Of a stretch of DNA of 46,313 bases, positions 4,592-43,734 are shown piece after piece. Location: contig CAZWBO010000002.1 of assembly GCA_964632375.1 (NCBI GenBank), positions 1 to 46,313 of the forward strand. Reading direction: 5' to 3'. Made by a program: the position numbers and the translations under genes. Numbering within the stretch: position 1 is the first letter of the stretch; every line of letters starts with the position of its first letter. Origin of the DNA: an uncultured Candidatus Peribacteria bacterium (GTDB taxonomy: Bacteria; Patescibacteriota; Gracilibacteria; Peribacterales; Peribacteraceae). The notes under the pieces were generated by a model. It made no database searches. It saw only the letters and a list, made by a program, of their open reading frames with translations, and was not told where the DNA came from.

Positions 4592-4635
4592 AGCGTTCGG
4601 ATGCTAGCGGTTGGTGAACGGATGTTCACTTGCGA

Positions 4636-4719
4636 GTTTGTAGTTTGTAGTTTGTAGTCGGTAGTCGGCAGTCGGCAGTCGGCAGTCGGCAGTCGGCAGT
4701 CGGCAGTCGGCAGTCGGCG
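4636..4719. repeat. 12-unit heptamer tandem array (3x GTTTGTA, 1x GTCGGTA, 7x GTCGGCA, 1x GTCGGCG)
   Basis: Direct reading shows a perfect 7-nt period over 84 nt. The array is immediately followed by TATAAT at 4720-4725. Confidence 0.9.
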
Positions 4720-4740
4720 TATAATATTGCCCCTCTTCTA

Positions 4741-4770
4741 CAGACTAAAGACTACCAACTACCGACTAAT
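4741..4770. repeat. inverted partial copy of the 4636-4719 heptamer array
   Basis: CAGACTAAAGACTACCAACTACCGACTAAT is the reverse complement of GTCGGTA/GTTGGTA/GTCTTTA-type heptamers. CTACCGACTA can pair with TAGTCGGTAG in the array. Confidence 0.7.
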
Positions 4771-4784
4771 CCCCCGTCTTTTGC

Positions 4785-14052: not shown

Positions 14053-14218
14053 TATTCTCAGAATCCGGATTCTTGCGTACCCTCAGCAATAGTTTTCACG
14101 TTTCCGGTGATAGTTGAGGATGAATCGTCGGTCCGCCTCTTCTCTCTGTCTTCTGGTTTCTCACTTCTGTCTTCTTCTCCCATCGAGGGCACGATTCTGC
14201 TGCGCAGACAAAAATCTT

Positions 14219-14253
14219 TTGACAGTGAACGACCGTCCACCTACACTGGTGTA
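14219..14253 (+). promoter_or_regulatory. candidate lexA promoter with overlapping palindrome (possible LexA operator)
   Basis: TTGACA (14219-14224), a 17-nt spacer, then TACACT (14242-14247). The palindrome TACAC-TG-GTGTA (14242-14253) overlaps the -10 box. Confidence 0.35.
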
Positions 14254-14275
14254 CGAACGTTTCCCCCCACGCCGC

Positions 14276-14887
14276 ATGTCTCTCACCCCCCACCAGCGCA
14301 CGGTTCTCAGTTACATCGGCGAGTTCCAGCACAAGCGGGGCTACTCGCCCTCGCTGGCGGATCTGGCCATTGCGTTCGGCGTGCGGAGCAAGAACGCCAT
14401 CGCGAAGGTGGTGAACGTCCTCACGCGCGACGGGCACCTGGAGAAAGATCCCAAAGGACGTATCAAGATTCTCGAGCGCGCGGAGGAAGCAGTACAGGCG
14501 GCCTTCCGGCCTCTTTCCCTTCCGCTTTTCGGTCCCATCTCGGCCGGTTTCGCGGCTCCGGTGGAGGAGCAAGCCGAAGAGACGGTGACGCTGGAGGATT
14601 ATCTCGTTCGCGATAAAGCCGCCACGTTCCTCCTGCGCGTGAAGGGCGACAGCATGATCAATGCTGGCATCCAGGAAGGGGATTTAGTCATCGTCGAGCG
14701 TGGCGCTCCGCCGAAGGTGCACGATATCGTCGTAGGTGTCCTCGATGGCGAATTCACGCTCAAACGCCTGCGCAAAGAGAAAGGCCGCTACTTCCTGCAG
14801 GCCGAGAACGACGCCTACCCGGATCTCTACGCCATGGATGAGCTCCAGGTGGCGGGGGTGGTGAGAGGCGTCATACGAAAGTACTAG
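14276..14887 (+). CDS. lexA: LexA repressor
   Basis: The ORF track starts at 14114. The conserved protein starts at the ATG at 14276 (MSLTPHQRTVLSYIGEF...). It has an N-terminal winged HTH and an S24 peptidase domain with GDSMINAGI and FTLKRL (Ser/Lys dyad). Confidence 0.9.
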   Translation: MSLTPHQRTVLSYIGEFQHKRGYSPSLADLAIAFGVRSKNAIAKVVNVLTRDGHLEKDPKGRIKILERAEEAVQAAFRPLSLPLFGPISAGFAAPVEEQAEETVTLEDYLVRDKAATFLLRVKGDSMINAGIQEGDLVIVERGAPPKVHDIVVGVLDGEFTLKRLRKEKGRYFLQAENDAYPDLYAMDELQVAGVVRGVIRKY

Positions 14888-14935
14888 AAGGGTAGTCGTA
14901 CACCATCGGCTGCTCGATCTTTTTCCTGATGAACC

Positions 14936-16196
14936 ATGATTGCTCATGTGGATGCGGATGCTTTTTTTGCATCAGTGCTGGTGCGGAAAGATCCCCGATT
15001 GCAAGGAAAGCCGCTGCTGGCTCTCGGTATGGGTGGAGGGTGTGTCATCGCCGCGAGCTACGAGGCGAAGGCCAAAGGAGTACGCACGGGCATGCGACTG
15101 ACTGACGCTTTGAGACTCTGTCCCGAGGCGCTGAAAGTGCATTCCGATTTCCGCGAAACAGGCCTCGCGTCGGATCAGATCGTTTCGATCATCGAGGAAC
15201 ACTGTCCGTTCATTGAGCAGTTCTCCATCGATGAGTGGTTTCTGGATCTCACGAGCCTGGTCGGCGGCGTGCCGGGGGATCTGACGGCATGGGCGACGCA
15301 TCTGCGACAGGAGATTCTAAAGCGCACTGGTCTCTCTGTGTCGGCGGGAATCGGCGCATCGAAGCTGTTGGCGAAGATGGCGTCGGAGTACCGCAAGCCT
15401 GGCGGTGTTACAGTTGTTTTGAATGATTCCTCCTTCCCCGGCAGGCAGGCGGTGGGGCCGGGGGAAGGTGCCCCGCAGGGCGGAAGGGGCCCTCCTCCGA
15501 GAAACCTTCCTCCGCGACCGCCCCGCCGCCGCCATCCCGGGCATCGGTCCGCGTCGGCTCGTGCACGTGGAGCGATTGGGATTAAAAACAGCGTGGGATA
15601 TCGCCATGGCGAATAGTGCCGTCCTCAAGCAGTACTTCGGGCAGAACGGCGTGGAGATGCAGCGTGAACTCTTGGGTGAACGCTTGTCGCCGGTGGCGCG
15701 CTCGTCGGCGTCGCCGAAGTCGGTCTCGCGGGCGCGGAGCTTTCCGCCATTGCGCGATCGTGCGGTGCTGTGGGCGCATGCGTTGCGACATATGGAGTAC
15801 ATCGTGCTCAAGATGCGCCGCCAGGATCTCGCGTGCCGAGGAGCGTCTCTCTGGCTGCGCGACGACCGCTACGGGTACGAGAGCTCGCACGTGTCGCTTC
15901 CGCAGCCGTTCGATACCGAAGATCACCTGCGCCCGTACGTGGAGCGCTGCTTCCGGCACCTGTACCGGCAGGGATACGCCTACACCCAAGTGGGTCTGTC
16001 GCTGTGGAACCTGTGCCCGCGAGGTGGACAACAGTTCTCGCTGTTCGAGCATCCTCGCGTGCTTCTGGAGCGCGAAGCGCTTCAGAAATCTCTGGATACT
16101 GTGCACGAGCGTTTCGGGCGCGATGCCGTTACCCGAGCGTCGGCACTAAGGGTGAAGAGTGGAACGAAGAAAGATGTGCCGTGGTGGGAGATGTAG
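14936..16196 (+). pseudogene. dinB: DNA polymerase IV (Y-family, DinB) with interrupted reading frame
   Basis: The N-terminal half is in ORF 14936-15616 (MIAHVDADAFFASV, SIDEWFLDL, SAGIGASKLLAKMASEYRKPGG). The C-terminal half is in ORF 15423-16196, in the +1 frame (ETFLRDRPAAAIPGIGPRRL...). The switch lies inside a ~70-nt GC-rich palindromic insert. This could be a true pseudogene, a 1-nt assembly error or recoding. Confidence 0.8.
15428..15497. repeat. GC-rich palindromic repeat element, copy B (inside dinB)
   Basis: CCTTCCCCGGC (15433-15443) pairs with GCCGGGGGAAGG (15458-15469). The 18-nt block 15459-15476 is identical to 31-48. The insert is flanked by TCCTCC at 15428-15433 and 15493-15498. 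Confidence 0.65.
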
Positions 16197-16369
16197 GGAA
16201 TCCGCGGCATTAGGCTTCAGTCAGCATTGATCAGTATCTGTGGTATTTTTCGTAAAGTGGGAGCAGGTTTACAACCTGCGGTCGTCTCTCTGCATTCACC
16301 CAAACTCAGCCTTTGATCGATAAGTCCTGTAGTTATATGTCTTAAGAATCCGTGATTCCTTATCCTCAC

Positions 16370-17284
16370 TCAAATCTCCTCCACATCAATCACCGTTAGA
16401 TCCTTCTGACGCGTCAGTTCCAGGAAGGCGAGTGTCCACACCGTGCGGCGGAACACGTGCAGGTAGCCGAAGAAGTAGCTCACCACGCCGATGAGGATGA
16501 TGCCGAGGAGTCCGGCGATGACGTAGCTCACGAGCGGCGAGAGCACATGGACGAGCACGAAGCCGGTGCCGAACACGATGCCGGGGATGAGCAGGATGAC
16601 AATGGCGTTGATGAACACGCGGATGGAAATGATGAACAGGAGCAGCATGAGGAAGACGATGTGGCCCAGGTGGCTGATGAGGAGTTTGAAGCTGTGTCCC
16701 ATCGACTGGAAGATATTCCACTGTTTGATGACGATGCCCTGCTCGGTGAAGCTCGCCATGAATTTGAGCACGCTCGAGAGGAGCCAGAAGGCGATGACGA
16801 CGGCGACCATGAAGAACTTCACATTGCCGTCGATGTACCGCAGCGCGATTGAGACGAGTGTGATGGTGGTGGACCAGCTGGCGAGTACGAAGAACTCATG
16901 CGCGCCGAAAATGGGGAGGAAATTGTACAAGGCCAGGATCAGTCCGCCTTTGACCGGCTCTTGGCGGTGCGACTTCGCCGCCAGCCCGATGATGGCGCCG
17001 GCAGCGATGTGGGGGAAAATCCACTCTACGGCCAGCAGAAGGCCAAAACCGATGAGAATGGAGAGGAACAACCCGAAGGGCACATGGTTGTAGAGCCACT
17101 CGAAATCGTCGAAGAAGCCGACACGCTTCTCGGCGAAGTACGCGTAGATGAAGTACACTTGGTAGGCGAGGAGTTTTGTGTCGAGAAATGTCTCGCAGAA
17201 CGATTCGGCGAATCCCCAGCGGCGCAGCGATTTCTCGCGCACGGTAATGGCCCAGGCCTCGGCGATGATCTCGCGGGGAGTCAT
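16370..17284 (-). CDS. hypothetical polytopic membrane protein
   Basis: The ORF track gives 16370-17350. The ATG at 17284 (MTPREIIAEAW...) is followed by at least 6 hydrophobic helices. Confidence 0.6.
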   Translation of the reverse strand: MTPREIIAEAWAITVREKSLRRWGFAESFCETFLDTKLLAYQVYFIYAYFAEKRVGFFDDFEWLYNHVPFGLFLSILIGFGLLLAVEWIFPHIAAGAIIGLAAKSHRQEPVKGGLILALYNFLPIFGAHEFFVLASWSTTITLVSIALRYIDGNVKFFMVAVVIAFWLLSSVLKFMASFTEQGIVIKQWNIFQSMGHSFKLLISHLGHIVFLMLLLFIISIRVFINAIVILLIPGIVFGTGFVLVHVLSPLVSYVIAGLLGIILIGVVSYFFGYLHVFRRTVWTLAFLELTRQKDLTVIDVEEI

Positions 17285-17339
17285 GGGGGGATGATACAGG
17301 GAGGTGGTGGGGCGTTCTAAGAAATTGGAGGTGCTACGC

Positions 17340-17472
17340 GAAGATTCCAAGACTGCAAGACTTCAAGATTGCAAATCCTCCTACACCGTCATGGTGAGGC
17401 GCGAGCCGCAGCGAGCCTCGAGCCATTGGCGTTTAGTTTGGCTTATTGCAGTCTTGCAGTCTTGGGATCTTC
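17340..17472. repeat. 133-nt TIR-bounded octamer-repeat element (CAAGACTG family)
   Basis: The left end GAAGATTCCAAGACTGCAAGAC (17340-17361) and right end GTCTTGCAGTCTTGGGATCTTC (17451-17472) are inverted repeats with one mismatch. The interior block TTTGGCTTATTGCAGTC is shared with 23790-23901. Confidence 0.8.
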
Positions 17473-18999
17473 CCTCAGGAGTCGCGGGATCGCCTGGTAC
17501 CGGTACTCTTTCCCCAGCAAAATTGTGATAGTGCCGAGGCCCGTTTGGTCGAGCTCAGGTGGCGGTGTGGGCGCAACCGGAATATGGAGGAGATTGCTGA
17601 AGAACGGCGCCAGAGTCTGGCCGGTGCCGGCGCGCGCGACGATCATCGAGCTTTCTTGGTCGGGAATATTGCCGTTGCGGATCTCGTTGAGGTCGAGGCC
17701 GAAGCGGATGAAGTCGCCGGCCAGTGCGCGGGCGTGGCCGCTGGGCGCGCCGGCGTTGAGCACGTCGATGGTCGGATGCTGCAGGAGCACGTCGCGCTGA
17801 GTGAGGAAGAACTGCGTGAAAATGCGTAGAGGTTCCCACGTTTCCATGCCGCTGTAGGGCAGGGGCAGCAAGACGAACGCGCCGCCGAAGTTCTCCATGG
17901 GTGGCGTGTAGAGGAAACCGCCGGCTTCCGACGCGCCGGTGCCCTGGCCGTTCACGTTGTTGATCTGCACGTTGAGGATCTTGTGGCGGTCGATCTCGGT
18001 GCCGAGCTTCGCGGCGCCGACCATCTCGCGCAGCGACATGGTGGTTTCGGTGTTCGTGTTGACGGTATCCCAGAGCGACATAAGGGTCGAAGGGCTCGAG
18101 AGGATGCCTTTCTCCTTTGCGCGCTGCGCGAGTGCGGCCACAATCTGCTGCTGACGCGCAGAGCGGCTGAAGTCGCTAGTGGAGTGGCGGCTTCGCGCGT
18201 ACTTCAGCGCTGTTTCGCCGTCCAGGTGCTGCGGGCCGGCGGCGATGCTGAACGTGACGTAGGAGTAGTTCGGGCCGGGGTATGTGGTGTCGACGATGGC
18301 CGTGGGTACGTCGATATCGATACCACCGAGCGCATCCACCGCGTTCACGAACCCAATGAAGTCGACCTTCACCACGTAGTGGATTTTCACGCCGAACGTG
18401 TCACCCATCTCGCGGGCCAATTCCTTCATGGCTTCCTGCGATGCGGCATTCTTGTCCATGCCTTGCTTGCGCAGGTAGCCCTTGTAGTCGCGATACAGAC
18501 TGTTGACGCGCCCTGCGCCCATTTTGCTCGTGCGGGTGAAATACAGATCGCGCGGAATCGAGATCATCGCCACACTCTTCGTCTTCGTCGCATCGACGCT
18601 CGCGATCATCATGGTATCGGTGAGATTCGCGCCCTGGTGCGATTCGTCGCCCTGGCCGAGCAGCAAAAAGTTCGTGTAGCCGTGCTCGTCGGTGGGCAGT
18701 GTGGAGCCGACGGTGTTGATGATGCCCTTGAGCGTGACGATCTTGAAGTCGAACAGGGCTTTTGCCACGCCGGCCATCAGTAGAAGGGCGAGCAGTATCG
18801 CGATCATCGCGATGCCGATGCGTCTGAGGATCGACTTGCGATGTTCTTTCACCTGCTCTTCCGCCCGTTCTTTGCGATGACGACGGAACCACGCGACGAG
18901 CGGGTAGCCGAATTGCAGTGCAAACAGGGTGTACTTTTGCCACGGGAATTTCTTGCGAGGAGCACGGTACTCACTCACACGTCGGGTCGTGAAGGACAT
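17443..18999 (-). CDS. LytR-CpsA-Psr (LCP) family protein
   Basis: The ORF track gives 17443-19119, and the ATG at 18999 (MSFTTRRV...) precedes a TM helix. The LCP core is LLLGQGDESHQGANLTDTMMIASVD...ISIPRDLY, with a C-terminal LytR_C-like domain. The last ~8 codons and the stop lie inside the repeat element. Confidence 0.85.
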   Translation of the reverse strand: MSFTTRRVSEYRAPRKKFPWQKYTLFALQFGYPLVAWFRRHRKERAEEQVKEHRKSILRRIGIAMIAILLALLLMAGVAKALFDFKIVTLKGIINTVGSTLPTDEHGYTNFLLLGQGDESHQGANLTDTMMIASVDATKTKSVAMISIPRDLYFTRTSKMGAGRVNSLYRDYKGYLRKQGMDKNAASQEAMKELAREMGDTFGVKIHYVVKVDFIGFVNAVDALGGIDIDVPTAIVDTTYPGPNYSYVTFSIAAGPQHLDGETALKYARSRHSTSDFSRSARQQQIVAALAQRAKEKGILSSPSTLMSLWDTVNTNTETTMSLREMVGAAKLGTEIDRHKILNVQINNVNGQGTGASEAGGFLYTPPMENFGGAFVLLPLPYSGMETWEPLRIFTQFFLTQRDVLLQHPTIDVLNAGAPSGHARALAGDFIRFGLDLNEIRNGNIPDQESSMIVARAGTGQTLAPFFSNLLHIPVAPTPPPELDQTGLGTITILLGKEYRYQAIPRLLREDPKTARLQ

Positions 19000-19090
19000 C
19001 GCGGACGAGTGTAGGGGAGGGAGGCGACTCTCGGAAGGGTCCCATGGAAATTCGGATTGATTTTTCGGCAGATGGATGCGGTATTTTTGT

Positions 19091-19135
19091 GAGTCTTCCT
19101 CTGGAAGAACGCTCCTCAAGACTCAAGATTCAACC
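19091..19135. repeat. CAAGACTC-family hairpin
   Basis: GAGTCTT (19091-19097) pairs with AAGACTC (19118-19124), with an inner hairpin CTTCC/GGAAG. It is followed by AAGATTCAA. Confidence 0.5.
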
Positions 19136-19142
19136 CTCATTG

Positions 19143-19856
19143 CTACCAATGGATCACCCACAGCACGCCGATAAGCACGGGTTGATGCAGGAGGTAGATC
19201 ATGAGTGAGTGGCGTCCTGGCCAGCTCAATTGTTCTACTGTCTGCTGTTTTATTTGCCATTGCCACTGCCATCGAACGTAGACGATACAGCCGAGCGCGT
19301 AGCCGATCAGTACCGTGCCGAACCAAGGAAAGAGCGGGAAATAATCGAGTGAGTCGAAGGCGGTGGGAAAGACGGGGAGAAAGAGGCGCGAGAAGCCCCA
19401 GTCGTGCGAGAGCCATCCTGTCAGGAAAAGGAAACTGATGATGAGATTCCAGCCGCCCAGTTGCGCGAACAGCGGCAGAAGCATCACGCTTATGCCGATG
19501 AGATGCAGCACGCCGAAGCGGATGAAGGTGTGCGGATCTATCGCGTACGTTGCGAGGCTGATGACGAGGCCCCAGCCGATCAGCCCCGCTCCACGCAGGA
19601 GGTTTTTTTTGTATATCTGTAGCCACTTTTGATTCTTGCGCTGCGCGCGATCCCACGACACGGCGAAGCTCGCGCCGACGAGGCCCAGGAAAAGGTGCGC
19701 TGCAATGCGCTGTACCCACCACCAGCCGCCGCCATAGAGGTTCATAGTCCATCCGTAGAATTCCTTCAGGTCGAACGCCAGGTGGAAAATGACCATCAAA
19801 ATGATGGCGAGAGTGCGCAGCAGATCGAGCTCGAGATGACGAGTGGCGGATGGCAT
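19143..19856 (-). CDS. DUF1624/heparan-alpha-glucosaminide N-acetyltransferase-like membrane protein
   Basis: 237 aa. The N-terminus LELDLLRTLAIILMVIFH and the multi-TM layout are typical of this acyltransferase-like family. Confidence 0.65.
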   Translation of the reverse strand: MPSATRHLELDLLRTLAIILMVIFHLAFDLKEFYGWTMNLYGGGWWWVQRIAAHLFLGLVGASFAVSWDRAQRKNQKWLQIYKKNLLRGAGLIGWGLVISLATYAIDPHTFIRFGVLHLIGISVMLLPLFAQLGGWNLIISFLFLTGWLSHDWGFSRLFLPVFPTAFDSLDYFPLFPWFGTVLIGYALGCIVYVRWQWQWQIKQQTVEQLSWPGRHSLMIYLLHQPVLIGVLWVIHW

Positions 19857-20044
19857 GGGTGATCGCGTGCAAAGCTACCTCGCTATCATGCGTCTGTCGA
19901 AGATCGTGATGGAGTGCGTAGCCGGATCGCCGTAACGTACAGGCAATACCTATGACCGATTATCACCGGGCCGTCGAGGCCCGGGTAGCGAGCGACGGCT
20001 CGCTACTGCGGTATTGTGAGGGAAATCGATTTCTTCAAGACTCA

Positions 20045-20076
20045 CAAAAAAATCCCCCTCGCGGGGGATTTTTTTC
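20045..20076. terminator. bidirectional intrinsic terminator
   Basis: AAAAAAAT-CCCCC-tcgc-GGGGG-ATTTTTTT, located directly 3' of the zinc-ribbon gene on the minus strand. Confidence 0.8.
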
Positions 20077-20099
20077 GATAGTCGTTGTAAGAGCTATCC

Positions 20100-20384
20100 T
20101 TATGCCGCGCCGCGCTCAGCCGAGAAGCACTCCTTGCAGAGGACCGGCTTGCCACCCTCCTCGACGGAGCGGGGCTTGAACGGAACCTGGCACTGGTTGC
20201 CACACTTGGCGCAGACCGCGTCGAACATCTGACGCTCGCCAAAGCGCTCAGACTTACGGGCATTGCGGCAATCCTTGCAGCGCTGGGGGGCGCTGAGGTT
20301 CTTGCTCGCGTAGAATTCCTGTTCACCCTCGGTGAACGTGAAGTTTTGACCGCAATCGCGGCACTGTAGCTGCTGATCAGCCAT
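20100..20384 (-). CDS. zinc-ribbon domain protein (zf-trcl-like)
   Basis: From the ATG at 20384: MADQQLQCRDCGQNFTFTEGEQEFYASKNLSAPQRCKDCR. A second pair of cysteine motifs follows, CAKCG...CKEC. Confidence 0.6.
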   Translation of the reverse strand: MADQQLQCRDCGQNFTFTEGEQEFYASKNLSAPQRCKDCRNARKSERFGERQMFDAVCAKCGNQCQVPFKPRSVEEGGKPVLCKECFSAERGAA

Positions 20385-20538
20385 AAAACAGAAAGAAGGA
20401 ATAAAATGTAGCCGATTTCCTTCTTCCATGTTTCTCGGGAACCGATATGACCTGTCTGAAGGATTAGCTTAGGTCTAGTGTACAGGAGGGGCGAATTCTG
20501 TCAATGAATTCGTCAGTATCCGCCCCTCTTTCACGTTT

Positions 20539-22037: not shown

Positions 22038-22049
22038 GGGGTGAGGTTT

Positions 22050-22215
22050 GAGTCTTGAATTTTGAGTCTTCAAGAGCGATAAGCGGATAGCGGATAGCGG
22101 ATAGCGATAAGCATCTTGCTGAGGATTGCTTCAAGCCTGAGTGCCATCTCTCATTTGCAGTCTTGCATTCTTGCAGTCTTGCAATCTTTCGTTACCGGCC
22201 CTTCAAGATTCAAAA
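22050..22215. repeat. ~165-nt composite dispersed repeat, copy 1
   Basis: Layout: GAGTCTTG-type inverted end, GCGGATA heptamers, the ~45-nt core GCTGAGGATTGCTTCAAGCCTGAGTGCCATCTCTCATTTGCA, TTGCAGTC/TTGCAATC octamers, then a CAAGATTC end. It aligns by eye at roughly 90 percent with 26297-26460. Confidence 0.85.
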
Positions 22216-23577: not shown

Positions 23578-23789
23578 ACAAAAACGCTGGCTCCGGTTGC
23601 CCGGGAGACCAGCGAGGAACACGGCACGAATCACCAAGCCGAAGCCGAGTGGCCGATGCTGTATTCCTCGGAGGGGCTTATGTCGGTCTGCGACCTTGTG
23701 CCCTCGGTCTTCGGACGTGCGAGAAGTGTAACCATAATTGGGAGGAGGTCAAGGGAGAATGGTAAGAAAGTACCGTAAAGGCGTCTTGG

Positions 23790-23901
23790 GAGAAAAGAAT
23801 TCAAGACTGCAAGAATGCAAGATTGCAAAGAAATCCCAAGATTCGATCTTTTGGTATGTGGTTTGGCTTATTGCAGTCCTGCAGTCTTGAATTCTTTTCT
23901 C
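23790..23901. repeat. 112-nt TIR-bounded octamer-repeat element (CAAGACTG family)
   Basis: Left end GAGAAAAGAATTCAAGACTGCAAG (23790-23813) and right end CTGCAGTCTTGAATTCTTTTCTC (23879-23901). About 22 nt are perfectly inverted. The interior TTTGGCTTATTGCAGTC is shared with 17340-17472. Confidence 0.85.
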
Positions 23902-23928
23902 CGACCGATAAGTGTCTATCATGCTCCC

Positions 23929-24400: not shown

Positions 24401-26305
24401 ATGAACGAGACGATCTCCTCTCCGCTGGCTGTCATCCTCCAAGAACTCCGCCTGCGGAAGGTGGCGACTCCGCGGGTGGAAGCGGCGTTTCGCCTGGCGA
24501 TGGATTTCTGCGTCGACACGATGCACTGGGTGGGGATCTCCACTGCAGATCACGTGGAGAGAGTGCTGCGAACGCTGCTCGCATTCGAGCCGGACGAAGA
24601 TGCGCTCATCGCCTGCGTGCTGCACCATACGCTGGACAGCAAGCGCGTGACGCTCATGGACATCGAGGAGCAGTATGGCCACACCGTGCGGTCGCTCGTG
24701 AGCGGGGTGCATCTCTTATCGCAGGTGCAGCTGCAGACGAGCCGCCATTCCGTGCAGCATCTGCGCATGATGCTCTTGAGCGTGACGGACGACGTGCGCG
24801 TGCTGCTCATCATCCTGTGCGATCGTGCTTCGCTCCTCGAGGAACTGCCGCGCGCGTCGGACGAGGATCGAAAATGGATCTGTCAGAATGTCTTGCACCT
24901 GTTCGCGCCCGTCGCTTCCCGGCTCGGCATCCACACACTCAAGCAGCGCATGGAGAATTCGGCATTCCCCATTCTGTATCCCAACGACAGCGCGCTCATT
25001 CAGACACAGCTGGAACACGTGCATACGCGGTACGCGAACTTCCTGCCAGAGGTGTCGGCGCAGCTGCGCAATGCCTTGGCGGATCAGGGGATTGCGGCTG
25101 CGGTTGATGGGCGCGAGAAAAACCCGTACAGCATCTTCGTGAAGATGCGGAACAAAAGCGTCTCCGACATCGAGCGGCTGCACGATCTGTTTGCGCTGCG
25201 GATCATCGTCGAGACGGAGGAAAACTGTTACCGGGCGCTCGGCGTGGTGCATCAGTTGGGAAGACCTGCTGCCAATCGGTTCAAAGATTACATCGCCTTC
25301 CCCAAGCCGAACGGTTACCGCAGCCTCCATACGACCATGGCGCGGTTCCCGGGCGTGCCGGAAGGGATTTTCACGGAAGTCCAGATCCGCACGGAAGCCA
25401 TGCACCGCGAGGCGGAATTCGGCATCGCCGCGCACTGGCACTACAAGGAACGCGGGTCGGCCGTGCGCGTGGTCGACAGCGTGCAGCTGCAGGAGGTTCT
25501 CTCTAAGCAGCACGATTTCGGGCAGGAGGAAGATACCGCCGGCATCATCAGCGATCACATTTACGTCCTCACCCCGTCGGGCGACATCGTCGAATTGCCG
25601 GAGGGGGCCACGCCGCTCGATTTTGCCTTCCAGATCCACACCGACCTTGGATTGTCGTTCAAGTCTGCGCGCGTGAACGGCAGCATTGTGCCGCTCACGT
25701 ACGAGCTCGAGAACGGCGATGTGGTCGAGATCGTGCGCAACCGCACGCCCCAGCCGTCGCCGGAATGGCTCAAGCTCGTGAAGATGGCCTCGTCGCGCAC
25801 GCGGCTCAAGCACTACCTGCACTCGCTCAATCGCGGGGAGTACGTCGCGCGCGGGCGCATGCTCCTCAACGAGGAATTCCAGAAGCTGCACCACGTACCT
25901 CTCGATACCGATCTCACGGCCCTGCGTCTGTACGAGGGCACCGTGCTCTCGGTGCACGAGCGTGAAGATCTCCTCATGAAAATCGGCCAGGGGTCGGAGC
26001 GTTCCTCTGCGGTGCTTCCGCATCTCGATGCGCTCCGTCCACTGCTTCAGCAGCGCGAGAAGCAGAAGAAAGTGAAGGCGCATCCCTCGGCGTTGGGTTT
26101 GGTGATCGACGGGGGACTGCCCATGCCCGTCCGCTTCGCCAAGTGCTGTAAGCCCGACGAGCTGCGCGAGGGCGGCATCGTCGGTATCGTCACGCGAAAC
26201 GGCCGCATCACCGTGCACCGGGAAGGATGCAGGATGATCCGCTTGGCGAACACGGAAAGGAAGGTGGGAATGCGGTGGGAGGAAAAGAGGGAGAATGAAT
26301 CTTGA
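24401..26305 (+). CDS. relA: RelA/SpoT-family (p)ppGpp synthetase, hydrolase motif degenerate
   Basis: 634 aa. The synthetase core is GREKNPYSIFVKM...FALRIIV...RFKDYIAFPKPNGYRSLHT...EVQIRTEAMH. The TGS domain (YVLTPSGDIVELPEGATPLDFAFQIH) and a C-terminal ACT-like domain are present. The HD-region motif reads LHH...DSK instead of LHD...EDT. Confidence 0.92.
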   Translation: MNETISSPLAVILQELRLRKVATPRVEAAFRLAMDFCVDTMHWVGISTADHVERVLRTLLAFEPDEDALIACVLHHTLDSKRVTLMDIEEQYGHTVRSLVSGVHLLSQVQLQTSRHSVQHLRMMLLSVTDDVRVLLIILCDRASLLEELPRASDEDRKWICQNVLHLFAPVASRLGIHTLKQRMENSAFPILYPNDSALIQTQLEHVHTRYANFLPEVSAQLRNALADQGIAAAVDGREKNPYSIFVKMRNKSVSDIERLHDLFALRIIVETEENCYRALGVVHQLGRPAANRFKDYIAFPKPNGYRSLHTTMARFPGVPEGIFTEVQIRTEAMHREAEFGIAAHWHYKERGSAVRVVDSVQLQEVLSKQHDFGQEEDTAGIISDHIYVLTPSGDIVELPEGATPLDFAFQIHTDLGLSFKSARVNGSIVPLTYELENGDVVEIVRNRTPQPSPEWLKLVKMASSRTRLKHYLHSLNRGEYVARGRMLLNEEFQKLHHVPLDTDLTALRLYEGTVLSVHEREDLLMKIGQGSERSSAVLPHLDALRPLLQQREKQKKVKAHPSALGLVIDGGLPMPVRFAKCCKPDELREGGIVGIVTRNGRITVHREGCRMIRLANTERKVGMRWEEKRENES

Positions 26306-26460
26306 GTTTTGAAGAGCGATAAGCGGATAGCGGATAGCGGTAAGCATATCGCTGAGGGTTGCTTCAAGCGTGAGTGCCATCTCTCATTTGCATTCTTGCA
26401 GTCTTGCAATCTTTCGTCACCGGCTATTCAAGACTCAAGATTCAAAACTCAAGACTCAGC
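26297..26460. repeat. ~165-nt composite dispersed repeat, copy 2
   Basis: Same modular layout and core (GCTGAGGGTTGCTTCAAGCGTGAGTGCCATCTCTCATTTGCA) as 22050-22215. The left end overlaps the last relA codons, and the right end abuts the tig stop. Confidence 0.85.
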
Positions 26461-26462
26461 CC

Positions 26463-27737
26463 TCATCCCAGCATTTCCACTACGAACTTCTCCACTTTCC
26501 TGCGCCAGCGCAGCTGCTCAAACTGCTCGGTGCCGGGGACGAAGCGGGGCATCTGCGCGCGCTCTTCGGGTGAGGCCGACGCTTGGGTGTCGGCGACGAG
26601 CTTCTCGATCTCCTCGTCCGTCACCTCGATGTTCTTCTGCTTGAGTGCTTCCTCGAGCCCGAACCGCAGCGTGAGGCGTTTGACGGCCTGTTCGCGCATC
26701 TCCTTCTGGAGCGATGCCTCGTCGCGTTGGGTCTGCTGTATCCAGTCTTCGATGGTCGCATTCTGCTGTTGCAAGCGGTCGCGCAGGTCGAGCAGGATGG
26801 CGCGCGCCTCCTGCTCCACGAGCTCGTCGGCGAGTTCCACCTTCGTGGCGTTCACGAGCGCGTCGAAGAGTTCCTCTTCGCGCTTCTGGCTCAACAATCC
26901 CTGCTCTTGCTCCTTCATCGAATCCTCTAACCTTTTGCGCACGTCGGCGGCGGAATCGGCCTGCAAGTTCTGCTTGGCGAACTCGTCCGTCAGTTCCGGC
27001 TTTCTCACTTCCTCCACTTTTACAACCTTCACGTTGAACGTGGCGGGCTTCCCGCGCAGGTGCTCGGCATGGTACTTCTCGGGGAAGGTGATCGAAAAAC
27101 TCTTCTCCTGCCCTTTGCTCAGTCCCTTCAGTTCATCCTCGAAGCCGGGGATCAGCGTCTTGCTGCCGATGACGGCCTGGTAGCCGCTCGAGCGCGTGCC
27201 GGGGATTTCGTTCTTCTGCTCGTCGACACCCACGAAATCCATCGTCACCTGATCGCCCTCGGCGGCGGCGCGATCCACTTCGGTGAGCGTCTTGTGTTGG
27301 TCGAGCACGTAGTCGACCATGCGCTGCACATCTTTCTCGTCCACTTTCGTGTCCTTCTTCTCAATCTTGATGCGATCCAAATTTTTGAGTGTCACCGCGG
27401 GTTTCTCGGCAAACGTCACCTTCACCGTGATCGGCTGCAGGCTCTCGATCTCCACGATCGGCGCGATGATGGGCTTCAGCTGATGCTCCTGCGCCAGCTT
27501 GCCGATCCATTCCGGCAGCAGCAGGCGGACGGTTTCGTCCATCACCGCTTCGTCCTTCAGACGCTCGCGGATCGTCGCAACGGGCGCTTTCCCGGGCCGA
27601 AAACCCGGTACGGACACGTTCTGGCCCATTCGTCGCACGGCGGCTTCCTCGGCTGCGGCGCTCTCCTCCGCGGTGAACGTCAGCCCGAACTGCGTTTTAC
27701 TCTGGGGAAGTTTCTTTGGGTCGGAGATCGTTGGCAT
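26463..27737 (-). CDS. tig: trigger factor
   Basis: 424 aa with the N-terminal ribosome-binding domain motif VPGFRPGKAP, an FKBP-like middle domain and a C-terminal domain. Confidence 0.93.
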   Translation of the reverse strand: MPTISDPKKLPQSKTQFGLTFTAEESAAAEEAAVRRMGQNVSVPGFRPGKAPVATIRERLKDEAVMDETVRLLLPEWIGKLAQEHQLKPIIAPIVEIESLQPITVKVTFAEKPAVTLKNLDRIKIEKKDTKVDEKDVQRMVDYVLDQHKTLTEVDRAAAEGDQVTMDFVGVDEQKNEIPGTRSSGYQAVIGSKTLIPGFEDELKGLSKGQEKSFSITFPEKYHAEHLRGKPATFNVKVVKVEEVRKPELTDEFAKQNLQADSAADVRKRLEDSMKEQEQGLLSQKREEELFDALVNATKVELADELVEQEARAILLDLRDRLQQQNATIEDWIQQTQRDEASLQKEMREQAVKRLTLRFGLEEALKQKNIEVTDEEIEKLVADTQASASPEERAQMPRFVPGTEQFEQLRWRRKVEKFVVEMLG

Positions 27738-27740
27738 GGG

Positions 27741-27775
27741 GAGAATTGAGAATGGAAAATTGAAAATGGAGAATT
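27741..27775. repeat. AT-rich heptamer array, left inverted repeat of the four-helix-bundle cassette
   Basis: GAGAATTGAGAATGGAAAATTGAAAATGGAGAATT. The 16-nt block ATTGAGAATGGAAAAT is identical to the reverse complement of part of 28155-28185. Confidence 0.8.
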
Positions 27776-28127
27776 ACAAGGTGGAACGGGACGTTTTGAT
27801 GATCGCGGTCAGTATGTTGATGATAGCATGGAGATCAGTGCGTAAAGCATCTGTGCTGGCTTCCGCAGTGATTTGCGCGTCCTTGAGGAGACGAAGCCAG
27901 TAATCAGTTTCATGAGATTCTTTGAGGGCGATCGAAAGTTTGGAGATGAAATCCTTCTTACTTTGCGCCTGAAGAGCCTCTTCGACATTCGCTCCGATGC
28001 TTGTTCCCGACTTCAGAATCTGCTGACTCATGACAAACTCCTTTTCCTGAGCAAGTTTTTTAGCAAATTTCACGATGCTCAGAGCAAACGCGTACGTTTT
28101 TTCCTGAATGACGTTCGGCTTCTTCAT
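27774..28127 (-). CDS. four-helix-bundle protein (23S rRNA intervening-sequence protein family, Avd-like)
   Basis: 117 aa with the family pattern ...YAFALSIVKFAKKL...ILKSGTSIGANVEEA...KDFISKLSIALKESHETDYWLRLL. The gene is lower in GC. Confidence 0.85.
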   Translation of the reverse strand: MKKPNVIQEKTYAFALSIVKFAKKLAQEKEFVMSQQILKSGTSIGANVEEALQAQSKKDFISKLSIALKESHETDYWLRLLKDAQITAEASTDALRTDLHAIINILTAIIKTSRSTL

Positions 28128-28154
28128 CTGCTTTACTTATAATGCAAAATAAAA

Positions 28155-28185
28155 TCTTCAATTCTCCATTTTCCATTCTCAATTT
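28155..28185. repeat. AT-rich heptamer array, right inverted repeat of the four-helix-bundle cassette
   Basis: TCTTCAATTCTCCATTTTCCATTCTCAATTT is the reverse complement of AAATTGAGAATGGAAAATGGAGAATTGAAGA. It abuts the secF stop. Confidence 0.8.
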
Positions 28186-31320: not shown

Positions 31321-31365
31321 GAGTCTTGATGGGGAAGATTGCAATCTTGCAGTCTTGCATTCTTT
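31321..31365. repeat. CAAGACTG/TTGCAATC-family octamer array
   Basis: GAGTCTTGATGGGGAAGATTGCAATCTTGCAGTCTTGCATTC, abutting the stop of the TPR gene. Confidence 0.7.
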
Positions 31366-34435: not shown

Positions 34436-34532
34436 GGGAATTGAGAATAGAGAATTGAGAATTGAGAATTGAGAATTGAGAGGTGTCTTGTTGCTGATCA
34501 TTTTCCATTTTCCTTTCTCAATTTTCAATTTC
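34436..34532. repeat. AT-rich heptamer hairpin element (GAGAATT family)
   Basis: The left arm GGGAATTGAGAATAGAGAATTGAGAATTGAGAATTGAGAATTGAGAGG has about 6 units of GAATTGA. The right arm CATTTTCCATTTTCCTTTCTCAATTTTCAATTTC is its imperfect inverted complement. Confidence 0.85.
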
Positions 34533-37710: not shown

Positions 37711-37748
37711 GATTGCAATCTTGCAGCCTTGCAATCTTGCATTCTTCC
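37711..37748. repeat. TTGCAATC/TTGCAGCC octamer array
   Basis: GATTGCAATCTTGCAGCCTTGCAATCTTGCATTCTTCC (period 8), directly adjacent to the 3' end of tRNA-Cys. Confidence 0.75.
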
Positions 37749-37751
37749 ACT

Positions 37752-37826
37752 TGGAGGTGCTGGTGGGAATTGCACCCACGTATGGGGGTTTTGCAGACCC
37801 CTGCCTTACTACTTGGCTACAGCACC
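37752..37826 (-). tRNA. tRNA-Cys (GCA), CCA-encoded
   Basis: The minus strand reads GGTGCTG-TA-GCCAAGTAGTAAGGC-A-GGGGT-CTGCAAA-ACCCC-CATAC-GTGGG-TGCAATT-CCCAC-CAGCACC-T-CCA. It has a 7-bp acceptor stem, a 5-bp anticodon stem, anticodon GCA and discriminator U73 (a tRNA-Cys identity element). The 13:22 A-A mismatch matches E. coli tRNA-Cys. Confidence 0.9.
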
Positions 37827-40374: not shown

Positions 40375-40460
40375 AATCAGAACACAGAGGGCAGAAAACA
40401 GAGGGCAGAAGTCAGGGGGTTGTGTGTATTTGATTTCTGCCTTCTGACTTCTGCTTTTTT
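40375..40460 (+). terminator. GGCAGAA-family repeat hairpin acting as the purP terminator
   Basis: The direct repeat ACAGAGGGCAGAA occurs twice. The stem GCAGAAGTCAG (40405-40415)/CTGACTTCTGC (40444-40454) is followed by TTTTTT. Confidence 0.6.
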
Positions 40461-40477
40461 CGATTATCCTGTCTCCC

Positions 40478-42621: not shown

Positions 42622-43734
42622 ATGCGCATCCTCTTCACGCGTTTCCCGCTGGAATCCGCCATGGGCGGCGCCGAAATCCAGACACTGAGCCTGATGGAAG
42701 GATTGCGAACGCGCGGCCACGATGTGGCATTTTTGGGGAGTTGCCCCGTGCTGTTGGCCGAATGTCGCAAGAGGAATTTCACTGCGACGGAGCTGCAGAT
42801 CGGCCCGCCGCCGGTGACGGCGTGGCATGCCACTACTTTTCTCTGGCGGCAACGATCGATGAAAAATAAATTACTCACGGCGCTTACCGCTCGCCGCTCG
42901 CCGCTGAGTGCTCTTTGCATGCTCAGCTTGAGTGAGAAGCTCCTTGTAACTGAGTATCTGCATCGCCAGAAGAAGACCGTGCTGTGGATCGAGCACGACC
43001 GCGTGGGGAACTGGCTGCGCAGAAACCCCTGGCTGCCTCGGCTCCGCCGATTGAGCCGATGGGCGACGACGGTGACGGTGTCGGAGATGAGTAGGCGTCT
43101 CTATCGGGAGTTGCGATGGGAAGACAAAAGCACGGTGGCGATTCCGAATGGTATTGATCTGACGAGATTTCAGAAGGCAGAAGGGAGAAGGCAGAAGTCG
43201 GCAGTAGTGCTGAGTATTGGTTGTGTAGCGCGATTAACGCGTGATAAAGGCGTAGATGTGCTGATCAAAGCACTGCGCGATGTGCCGAAAATACAGTTGA
43301 CGATTGTGGGCCAGGGACGCGAGGAGGCTGTGTTGCAAGCGCTGATTGCCTCGCACGGGCTGGGCGATCGCGTTCGGATCCTCCCTGCCATGGACGATCT
43401 CGGTGCATTCTACCGTTCGCTCGATCTGCTCGTGCTGCCCGCGCGCGACCATGATCCCTTCGGCCTCGTGGCGGCGGAGGCGATGAGCGTGGGCGTGCCG
43501 GTGATCGTGACAGACCAGTGCGGCATCGCGAGTTACTTGCACGACGGCATCGACGCGCTCGTTGTCGAGGCCGGATCGCCCGACAAGCTGGCCCAAGCGA
43601 TCAAGCAGCTCGCTGATCCCCGGCGGCGTGAACGCATGGGAGCAGCGGGCCACCGTACCGCGCACGAGCAGTTTTCGCTGGCAGCGATGATTGATCGATA
43701 CGAGAAACTTATGCAAAGCGGTTACCAACGATGA
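42622..43734 (+). CDS. glycosyltransferase family 4
   Basis: The ATG at 42622 gives MRILFTRFPLESAMGGAEIQ.... The GT4 C-terminal domain has LTRDKGVDVLIKAL and FGLVAAEAMSVGVPVIVTD. It contains an in-frame GGCAGAA-type repeat at 43171-43209. Confidence 0.85.
   Translation: MRILFTRFPLESAMGGAEIQTLSLMEGLRTRGHDVAFLGSCPVLLAECRKRNFTATELQIGPPPVTAWHATTFLWRQRSMKNKLLTALTARRSPLSALCMLSLSEKLLVTEYLHRQKKTVLWIEHDRVGNWLRRNPWLPRLRRLSRWATTVTVSEMSRRLYRELRWEDKSTVAIPNGIDLTRFQKAEGRRQKSAVVLSIGCVARLTRDKGVDVLIKALRDVPKIQLTIVGQGREEAVLQALIASHGLGDRVRILPAMDDLGAFYRSLDLLVLPARDHDPFGLVAAEAMSVGVPVIVTDQCGIASYLHDGIDALVVEAGSPDKLAQAIKQLADPRRRERMGAAGHRTAHEQFSLAAMIDRYEKLMQSGYQR

Follow-up and report, generated by a model that had tools for sequence, protein, structure and literature searches.

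Two elements in the spacers of a Candidatus Peribacteria contig, here called elements 1 and 2, belong to a class of intergenic palindromes with arms in which a degenerate unit of 7-8 nt, in this case CAAGAnTG, is repeated in short tandem arrays. The contig, which comes from the candidate phyla radiation (CPR), is 46,313 bp long and is referred to as a whole as the window. The class occurs genome-wide and across phyla, and the same architecture carries genes for 23S rRNA intervening-sequence proteins (IVPs; PF05635), which are four-helix bundles. Furthermore, the hairpins lack the hallmarks of cut-and-paste transposition. We put at about even the chances that elements 1 and 2 belong, as members without a gene, to a hairpin class resembling the ribosomal intervening sequences (IVSs) or the repetitive extragenic palindromic (REP) sequences, a composite explanation that covers their spread, their symmetry and their processing. 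All sequences used were metagenome-assembled genomes (MAGs) or public assemblies, and the samples comprise tens of loci.

Architecture and setting of elements 1 and 2

Both elements are long imperfect palindromes, and Tandem Repeats Finder resolves their arms into period-8 arrays of CAAGAnTG octamers, with CAAGACTG, CAAGAATG and CAAGATTG as the variants (Table 1). A preliminary description of this DNA had given them 22-nt inverted ends, which we confirm: in element 1, positions 17340-17361 (GAAGATTCCAAGACTGCAAGAC) match the reverse complement of 17451-17472 (GAAGATCCCAAGACTGCAAGAC) at 21/22 positions, and in element 2 (23789-23902), positions 23790-23811 match the reverse complement of 23880-23901 at 22/22. 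A repeat finder extends the arms to 36 nt in element 1 (83% complementary, 61 nt apart) and to 41 nt in element 2 (85% complementary, 32 nt apart). The interior block TTTGGCTTATTGCAGTCyTGCAGTCTTG, also claimed beforehand, was found at 17437-17464 and 23862-23889, and the right halves of the two elements are 78% similar across 59 nt, the block TTTGGCTTATTGCAGTC included. Element 2 starts AAGAATTCAAGACTGCAAG, without the 'TCC' that the consensus proposed for the start of both elements implies. The outermost arm segments match inside each element and differ between the two.

When up to two mismatches are allowed, the motif CAAGACTGCAAG occurs 24 times in the window, compared with 3.8 +/- 1.9 times in shuffled sequences (maximum 8; 0/100 reach 24). 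As single strands of RNA or DNA, the two elements form long hairpins: element 1 folds at -62/-65 kcal/mol (z -5.7/-7.3 against shuffles) and element 2 at -54 kcal/mol (z -7.6/-8.4). A small terminator-like hairpin (AAAACCCAAGAG..CTCTTGGGTTTT), decayed in element 2, is present in the loops of two homologues of element 2 on contigs of a sister MAG (L037:1565-1660 and L077:5690-5795). Covariation counts are not meaningful for these stems because arms of repeated units align in several registers. Over the window, Rfam at gathering thresholds gave tRNA-Cys as its sole match and none on the elements; in E-value mode, element 2 drew only sub-threshold matches to plant miRNA precursors, which signify a long hairpin and nothing further.

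Element 1 lies in the 158-nt spacer between an LCP (LytR-CpsA-Psr) gene and a membrane-protein gene, both on the minus strand. The LCP frame stops within its right arm (...LLREDPKTARLQ*, stop codon 17443-17445), such that this arm, read on the minus strand, codes for the final LCP codons (..EDPKTARLQ) and the stop, as had been noticed in the preliminary description. Element 2 is found in the spacer from which rplJ and dtd-relA diverge; its right end is 30 nt before the dtd start codon, and on the other side it is located 37 nt upstream of a promoter-like site of rplJ, TTGACC-16-TACACT (-35 starts at 23752). No U-tract follows either element on either strand, and a terminator scan calls neither. 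The window contains no rRNA genes, and both elements sit between protein genes.

Short tandem arrays across the window

The two elements are part of a much larger set. Tandem Repeats Finder returned 31 period-7/8 arrays, 23 of which lie within the intergenic 12.9% of the window (binomial p ~1e-14, with array density assessed as intergenic versus coding DNA inside the window), and about half of the spacers (17/37) hold at least one. Several unit families are represented: CAAGAnTG, CAAGACT/CAAGATT, GAGAATT/GAAAATG, AGCGGAT, AGTCGGC, CAGAAGG and AGTGGGT. The octamer unit equals the CAAGACT heptamer with one inserted base. The arrays take the form of single arrays, inverted pairs, the stem of a terminator and a bracket round a PF05635 gene. 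Four lone CAAGAnTG arrays, absent from the preliminary description, are included in Table 1; the one at 26387-26414 adjoins a CAAGACT heptamer array at 26423-26465. Inverted pairs of other unit families form hairpins at three more sites (4635-4772, 34438-34531 and 40378-40465). The arms of the gene-less hairpin at 34438-34531 align in register with those of the PF05635 cassette described below.

Inverted arrays bracket IVP genes across phyla

The window's only PF05635 gene lies in the cassette at 27740-28185, in the order secF stop / AATTGAGAATGGAAAATGGAGAATTGAAG.. / gene / TTCTCCATTTTCAATTTTCCATTCTCAATTCTCC / tig ATG. Two more distant relatives, L001 and L003, whose LCP proteins are 74% and 64% identical to that of the window (LCP homologues place the contig in Candidatus Peribacteria/Peregrinibacteria), have no such cassette there, secF and tig being adjacent. 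L003 has an IVP cassette of its own (L003:13587-14035) between lexA and dinB, which are adjacent in L001. That IVP gene is flanked by TGAGTCT.. and ..CAAGACT arrays, the latter forming the C-terminus of the IVP. Related genomes thus carry IVP cassettes at different sites, and the cassettes are bounded by stop and start codons.

We quantified the association with a bracket score, the best local complementarity between the 150 nt upstream of a start codon and the stop-codon region. Control scores from the 1111 open reading frames (ORFs) of all fetched loci had a median of 7.5 and a 99th percentile of 13. In the fetched loci, a score of at least 14 was reached by 7/10 IVP genes (14-30.5) and by 10/1111 control ORFs; the high-scoring controls include two true IS transposases, which serve as positive controls, and small PDDEXK_3 and DUF559 genes.

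A further 16 IVP homologues, sampled blind to repeats from seven or more phyla, gave the same picture: 13/16 score above the control 99th percentile and 15/16 score at least 12.5. In 15/16, which range from Peribacteria to Nostoc, Treponema and Monoglobus, inverted tandem arrays enclose the gene and abut the neighbouring stop and start codons, and hairpins of like build but without a gene are dispersed over the same genomes. Six came from a protein search (Peregrinibacteria, Peribacteraceae, Polaribacter, Chryseobacterium, Thermohalobacter and Ignavibacteria); 5/6 of these score 17.5-22, and all six genes are wedged co-directionally between their neighbours. Two homologues of the L003 type, from Uhrbacteria and Levybacteria, score 15.5 and 12.5. 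The other eight are plasmid genes, from Treponema, Bernardetia, Aulosira, Euhalothece, Monoglobus, Nostoc punctiforme, Chlorohelix and Planktothrix, with scores of 12.5-36; on the Monoglobus plasmid the gene order is hsdS-IVP-hsdR.

The IVP arms are plain tandem heptamers, such as (TTCAAAA)n/(TTTTGAA)n, (CAATTCG)4/(TTGCGAA)4, (TAGTGAT)8 and (CTGGTCA)13. Those of Planktothrix include (CCCCAAT)4, which we take to be the classical unit of STRR1, one of the short tandemly repeated repetitive (STRR) sequences of cyanobacteria. Arm units can be set against the protein clusters of the IVPs: window-type proteins have units with an AATT core, L003-type proteins have an AAGAnT core, and 4/4 octamer-bracketed IVPs fall into one cluster. 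These sequence comparisons are suggestive of unit families that partly track the protein clusters. A strict rule by which the IVP clade sets the unit sequence was rejected, the L003-type IVPs having CAAGACT, GAAGAAT or CATGAAT arms.

We found no paper in the literature stating a general association of PF05635 with inverted arrays, and the association of PF05635 with inverted short tandem arrays is apparently general and not previously described.

Three side observations concern these loci. Small genes of the PDDEXK_3, DUF559 and HEPN families (L022:3002-3373, L103:2968-3354 and L162:2721-3113) have bracket scores of 20, 15.5 and 11.5, and to judge from the sequence they may be alternative cargo of such cassettes. 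The contigs with IVP homologues are mostly very short; such repeats appear to break assemblies. Finally, in Chryseobacterium sp. StRB126 (L240:1-185), a PF01797 Y1 transposase gene is found two genes upstream of the IVP cassette, which may be a coincidence and yet bears on the analogy to REP sequences considered below.

Turnover in relatives and the question of mobility

The closest comparison is with L080, a contig of the sister MAG CAZTYD01, which is orthologous to window positions 14387-20524 at 83-94% nucleotide identity (about 85%). Element 1 occupies the same LCP spacer in L080, where a block of its loop is identical at 27/27 positions and the LCP tail reads PKTAGLQ*. Further copies were found in the sister MAG by a genome scan, including a hairpin directly after a stop codon (L037:1007-1160), and homologues of element 2 at L037:1565-1657 and L077:5696-5789 have 79-82% identity over 94 nt. 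The arrays themselves turn over. That following the terminator of a zf gene has 4.7 TTGAGTC units in L080 versus ~1.5 in the window, and the arrays that precede LCP point in opposite directions in the two genomes. L001 and L003 retain synteny, but their LCP spacers carry other tandem units and cannot be aligned, and neither is an empty site; their LCP tails diverge immediately past ..LLRE. Read from these sequences, the elements seem to evolve in place and to be homogenized within the genome, a pattern unlike that of a cut-and-paste element.

One minor point concerns the assembly of L080, which has a 100-N scaffold gap inside element 1 (L080:3079-3178), with ~55 nt duplicated on both sides.

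The preliminary description likened the two elements to miniature inverted-repeat transposable elements (MITEs). A classical MITE is a non-autonomous cut-and-paste transposon with terminal inverted repeats (TIRs; here GAAGATTCCAAGACTG-type ends), which a transposase from another locus of the genome mobilizes in trans. Part of this reading stands, as there is a dispersed family of gene-less palindromes with several copies, and their size (112-137 nt), long inverted termini, interior likeness and intergenic position would suit a MITE, as would the lack of a transposase nearby. Pfam scans of essentially all sizeable ORFs in the window found no transposase, integrase or Y1 transposase of the REP-associated (RAYT) type, which bears out what had been said about transposases. 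However, target-site duplications are lacking, with direct repeats of only 0-1 nt at 8/8 hairpin elements, and the outer termini are unlike among copies (GCGAAGATTCC.., TGGGAGAAAAGAATTC.., TGAAGATTGC.., GAAAGATTGC..), the outermost 8-13 nt differing among element 1, element 2 and the copies L037a, L037b and L077b. What the copies have in common is a degenerate 8-nt unit and not an element end. With no target-site duplication and unlike termini, a TIR/target-site-duplication transposon is not supported. The 'TIR' sequence also occurs in lone direct arrays and in unrelated phyla, and its unit is one among many families that behave alike and form arrays or inverted arrays in about half of the spacers. 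Finally, the orthologous spacer of the closest relative is already filled by element 1, an outcome that the preliminary description had named as speaking against mobility. We consider a MITE very improbable. The elements may still be non-autonomous derivatives in some other sense: the IVP cassette is a gene-bearing version of this architecture, but what its gene encodes is no known transposase.

Slippage and quasi-palindrome template switching in the loosely constrained spacers of a small genome could instead have produced the elements as functionless by-products that persist neutrally, which we regard as unlikely, albeit worth weighing. The fast turnover of unit, copy number and orientation among relatives would be expected of such by-products, as would the degenerate units, the many unrelated unit families and the arrays that run into coding ends, even in frame in the valS gene of L003. 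It is harder to reconcile with them that the same unit recurs at six or more loci within 46 kb and in contigs of the sister genome, that the element 1 loop is 27/27 identical when flanking segments aligned between the window and L080 are 83-88% identical, that arrays lie tight against stop and start codons, and that there is a specific tie to one gene family across phyla.

The in-frame arrays of L003 valS (15242-18058, minus strand) are inverted TGAGTTT/TCAAGAC arrays at L003:16637-16695, which code for part of a ~31-aa insert (..ENSKLKTQNSEF..) absent in the window ValS.

Octamer arrays beyond the lineage

A metagenome search with an octamer-array pattern of 22 specified bases matched at least 120 contigs (mean G+C 43%), and a genome scan found arrays of up to 18 units in loci titled Bacteroidales, Rikenella, Chitinophagaceae and Longimicrobiales MAGs. 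CAAGAnTG octamer hairpins are present in loci titled Ruminococcus and Butyrivibrio. Octamer arrays are accordingly known from Bacteroidota, Bacillota and Gemmatimonadota contigs. Among the metagenome matches listed, (TTGCAGTC)n begins 2-12 nt past a stop codon in 33/53 cases and faces gene 3' ends 114 times versus 44, and an inverted array comes after it, beyond a loop of 15-33 nt, in 15 cases and is never found upstream of it.

Positions of this kind raise the question of whether the elements could be Rho-independent, possibly bidirectional, terminators with unusually long stems. At 40378-40465 this is exactly what is found: a long stem built of arrays is followed by U6, and the structure is therefore a bona fide intrinsic terminator. 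The inner AAAACCCAAGAG..CTCTTGGGTTTT hairpin in the homologues of element 2, the A-rich 5' and U-rich 3' edges of element 2 and the preference of Bacteroidota-type arrays for gene 3' ends point the same way. Elements 1 and 2 themselves, however, are without the U-tract and the scan calls reported above, element 2 lies between divergent genes, and IVP cassettes lie within operons, where termination would be polar. Ordinary terminators are found right beside arrays at some window sites, and elsewhere a canonical terminator precedes only 4/117 arrays among the matches listed. That elements 1 and 2 are terminators is highly unlikely in our judgement.

We also rejected the notion that arrays are appendages of canonical terminators; a few window sites fit it, but elsewhere only the same 4/117 arrays do.

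Searches of the literature on Peribacteria repeats, the octamer sequence and PF05635/TIGR02436/S23p found no account of such elements. The Peribacteria genome paper mentions only origin-proximal short repeats.

Discussion

The hairpins abut or overlap stop and start codons and turn over between relatives, and the explanation we favour, with the even chances given at the outset, runs as follows. Arrays would lengthen and shorten through replication slippage, and template switching within the palindrome, or gene conversion, would keep the arms symmetrical, because outer segments match within a copy and differ between copies. Copies, with a cargo gene or with none, would pass between spacers by recombination via arrays of the same family, without a transposase. 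Once transcribed, an element would form a double-stranded stem of 23 bp or more; for element 1 the transcript would be the message from LCP to the membrane-protein gene, and for element 2 it would probably be the dtd-relA leader. The stem might be cut by RNase III, or otherwise fix the ends or stability of the mRNA, as ribosomal IVSs and Correia elements would lead one to suppose, and the effect would be to uncouple adjacent cistrons, not to terminate transcription. By this analogy, the RNA of elements 1 and 2 is probably processed in double-stranded form.

A number of points weigh against this explanation. No IVP cassette with CAAGACTG arms was seen in the Peribacteria lineage, and the link between elements 1 and 2 and the IVPs is one of analogy, drawn from the common architecture and the related CAAGACT heptamers at the L003 IVP gene. 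L080 does not preserve the outermost 8-10 bp of the stem of element 1, and between element 1 and L080 a single wobble-compatible change speaks for selection on pairing. The role at the RNA level and the part given to RNase III are taken by analogy from other systems, and the spread through recombination is a step that we infer. Neutral slippage could yield much of the pattern. Element 2 lies in a divergent promoter region and may act at the DNA level, for example in protein binding. Finally, the arms of Bacteroidota-type hairpins come in the reverse order, (TTGCAGTC)n-loop-(GACTGCAA)n, in 15 versus 0 cases among the matches listed.

Arrays that bind protein as DNA, whether as iteron-like sites for a regulator or nucleoid protein or as promoter/UP-like modules, deserve mention in this context. 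Tandem identical units are typical of multimeric binding, some arrays have promoter-like scores, and a TTGnnTC-type array lies ~40-60 nt upstream of the conserved rplJ promoter in the window and in L001. Nevertheless, arrays occur in every intergenic context, including just past stop codons and a tRNA, the order and orientation of their arms are not fixed relative to genes, and a hairpin better explains the symmetry of inverted pairs. We have little confidence that DNA binding is what the elements are for, and think it very unlikely.

One close parallel to the hairpin class that we propose is the ribosomal IVS. The 23S IVS of Coxiella combines an S23p ORF with tandem heptamers, whose number varies between strains, and with a terminal inverted-repeat stem of 28 bp that RNase III cuts; 23S IVSs are regarded as selfish (PMC4990558). 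The elements studied here resemble the 23S IVSs of Coxiella burnetii and Leptospira in their size (~100-450 nt), their long terminal inverted-repeat stem, the optional small four-helix-bundle ORF in the loop and the variable tandem heptamers beside that ORF. The cassette at 27740-28185 is built like the ORF-bearing form, and in both size and shape elements 1 and 2 agree with the form that lacks an ORF. Unlike IVSs, however, the elements lie in protein-gene spacers and operons and not in rRNA helices, their arms are plainly built as tandem arrays, and neither element 1 nor element 2 has an ORF.

The window as a whole recalls the STRR and TAACTGA repeats, with 7-nt tandem units that are largely intergenic, many sets per genome, patchy occurrence across phyla, no known mechanism and occasional overlap with ORF ends. 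TAACTGA repeats are intergenic in Beggiatoaceae, Cyanobacteria and Bacteroidetes, where their function and spread are unknown (MacGregor, 2015, PMC4679880), and theirs is the nearest published account that we found; that paper makes no mention of a link to PF05635. Inverted pairs are prominent here, whereas MacGregor found one inverted set among 170 (PMC4679880). Elements 1 and 2 also differ from both repeat types in using 8-nt CAAGAnTG units, alongside the 7-nt families of the window, in that the arrays are not concentrated just upstream of start codons, and in their host, Candidatus Peribacteria, although octamer arrays also occur in Bacteroidota contigs.

REP sequences and bacterial interspersed mosaic elements (BIMEs) are found in Proteobacteria, where REPtrons consist of a RAYT gene flanked by inverted REPs; roles in mRNA stability have been proposed for them. 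The likeness is considerable: plentiful extragenic palindromes, often at gene 3' ends, single and in inverted pairs, without target-site duplications, and a small gene between inverted copies with many gene-less copies elsewhere, as in a REPtron. Nonetheless, the arms here are degenerate tandem arrays of variable units, in several families per genome, which sets them apart from a fixed palindrome of 20-40 nt headed by a conserved tetranucleotide. We think it distinctly unlikely that the elements are REP/BIME-like in the strict sense of being spread by a RAYT (a Y1, IS200/IS605-like transposase) acting on single-stranded hairpins. A gene bracketed by inverted copies does resemble a REPtron, and a PF01797 (Y1_Tnp) gene does lie two genes from the Chryseobacterium IVP cassette; but no RAYT was found in the window, and the product of the bracketed gene is a four-helix bundle protein and not a Y1 transposase.

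Two further families invite comparison. The Correia elements of Neisseria are MITEs with conserved 26-bp TIRs and a TA duplication, and their hairpin RNA is processed by RNase III. They are similar in length (~100-150 nt), long inverted ends and intergenic position, and are co-transcribed with their neighbours, but conserved ends and target-site duplications were not found at the eight hairpins here. Rickettsia palindromic elements, fixed-sequence families of ~100-150 nt known only from Rickettsia, are not arrays of tandem units. Like them, the present repeats can add peptide segments as in-frame palindromes (the LCP tail and the valS insert of L003); unlike them, they are tandem-unit arrays and occur outside Rickettsia.

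A bolder proposal, which we advance only tentatively and think possible rather than likely, is that inverted 7-8-nt arrays are the cis part of a cross-phylum selfish cassette, so far unrecognized, whose cargo is PF05635 (S23p/IVP). The arrays may then include the STRR heptamers, ribosomal IVSs may be a special case in which rRNA is the site of insertion, and the many hairpins without a gene, elements 1 and 2 among them, may be non-autonomous derivatives of the cassette. That arm unit families partly track the IVP protein clusters lends this proposal suggestive support. The S23p/IVP protein is cited as a pentameric toroid (PMC4990558) and, by analogy, an IVP pentamer may bind about five tandem units of its own arrays, as RNA or as single-stranded DNA.

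Intergenic heptamer arrays (STRR, TAACTGA), ribosomal intervening sequences and the widespread four-helix bundle/S23p proteins have been three separate puzzles. We know of no function for the cyanobacterial STRR heptamers. The present work suggests that STRR/TAACTGA arrays, ribosomal IVSs and S23p proteins are facets of one system. The kinds concerned (IVS, REP/BIME and STRR) are known, and what is new is their variant in a CPR bacterium. The arrays would explain contig breaks at IVP genes, they add array-coded tails to annotated proteins such as LCP, and they can be mistaken for MITEs or terminators.

Other features of the window

Table 1. Coordinates of elements, arrays and genes in the window, and of bracketed IVP loci elsewhere
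Feature	Position	Strand	Description
Element 1 left arm	17340..17375	.	GAAGATTC CAAGACTG CAAGACTT CAAGATTG CAAA, degenerate octamer array
Element 1 loop, 61 nt	17376..17436	.	inner G+C-rich hairpin GAGGC..GCCTC; 27-nt block identical in L080
Element 1 right arm	17437..17472	.	inverted octamer array
Element 2 left arm	23789..23829	.	GGAGAAAAGAATT + CAAGACTG CAAGAATG CAAGATTG CAAA
Element 2 loop, 32 nt	23830..23861	.	decayed form of small terminator-like hairpin AAAACCCAAGAG..CTCTTGGGTTTT
Element 2 right arm	23862..23902	.	inverted octamer array
IVP cassette	27740..28185	-	secF stop, heptamer array 28150-28185, PF05635 gene 27774-28127, inverted array 27740-27775, tig ATG
Bracketed IVP loci	L032:7481-7967, L191, L204, L237-L241, L243, L244, L247-L254		inverted 7-8-nt arrays abut neighbouring stop/start codons
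LCP (LytR-CpsA-Psr; PF03816)	17443..18999	-	Pfam; homology to relatives stops at ..LLRE, tail array-encoded
Membrane-protein gene (MTPREII..), downstream of LCP	16370..17284	-	starts at 17284
Lone octamer array	22154..22189	-	downstream of rplL and canonical terminator; part of ~118-150-nt composite repeat
Lone octamer array	26387..26414	-	between convergent relA and tig; composite repeat copy 2
Lone octamer array	31338..31365	-	right after TPR gene stop codon, before canonical terminator
Lone octamer array	37712..37747	-	directly 3' of tRNA-Cys (37752-37826)
Inverted GAGAATT-family heptamer pair, gene-less	34438..34531	.	between fn3-protein gene and pfkB
Inverted CAGAAGK heptamer arrays	40378..40465	+	long near-unbroken stem then U6; between two purP-like genes
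(AGTTTGT)3(AGTCGGC)9-10 and inverted degenerate array	4635..4772	.	divergent spacer upstream of rpsO

The composite repeat that contains two of the lone octamer arrays is duplicated with 83% identity (22063-22180 versus 26296-26413, within 22038-22215 and 26296-26469). It consists of an AGCGGAT array, an AAGCA..TGCTT hairpin, the conserved block CAAGCSTGAGTGCCATCTCTCA, the octamer array and a CAAGAnT array, and may represent a gene for a small RNA or belong to some larger family of repeats. In the (AGTCGGC)n hairpin upstream of rpsO, the loop at 4718-4738 contains GTATAAT, a perfect -10-like hexamer. Heptamer arrays of CAGAAGG (43171-43197) and CCGCTCG (42887-42905) are found inside the long ORF of a GT4 glycosyltransferase, where the former separates the two Pfam domains of the protein and may have been inserted in frame as a linker.

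Next to element 2, the 5' leader of rplJ (~130 nt) is strongly conserved in three Peribacteria (window 23590-23752, minus strand; L001:5480-5640; L003:5520-5690), and so is the promoter-like site TTGACC/TTGACT-N16-17-TACACT. The leader has no Rfam match, and no L10-leader match even in E-value mode; it is probably a lineage-specific L10 autoregulatory leader.

The orientation of the lexA-dinB module (window 14114-16196) relative to valS and LCP is the reverse of that in the syntenic relatives (L001:12761-14643 and L003:12971-15255). L080 keeps the arrangement of the window, though with an additional ~1.8 kb between dinB and the membrane-protein gene. In the window, dinB is apparently split by a frameshift, with the IMS domain in 14936-15616 and IMS_C in another frame in 15423-16196, which could reflect a pseudogene or an assembly error.

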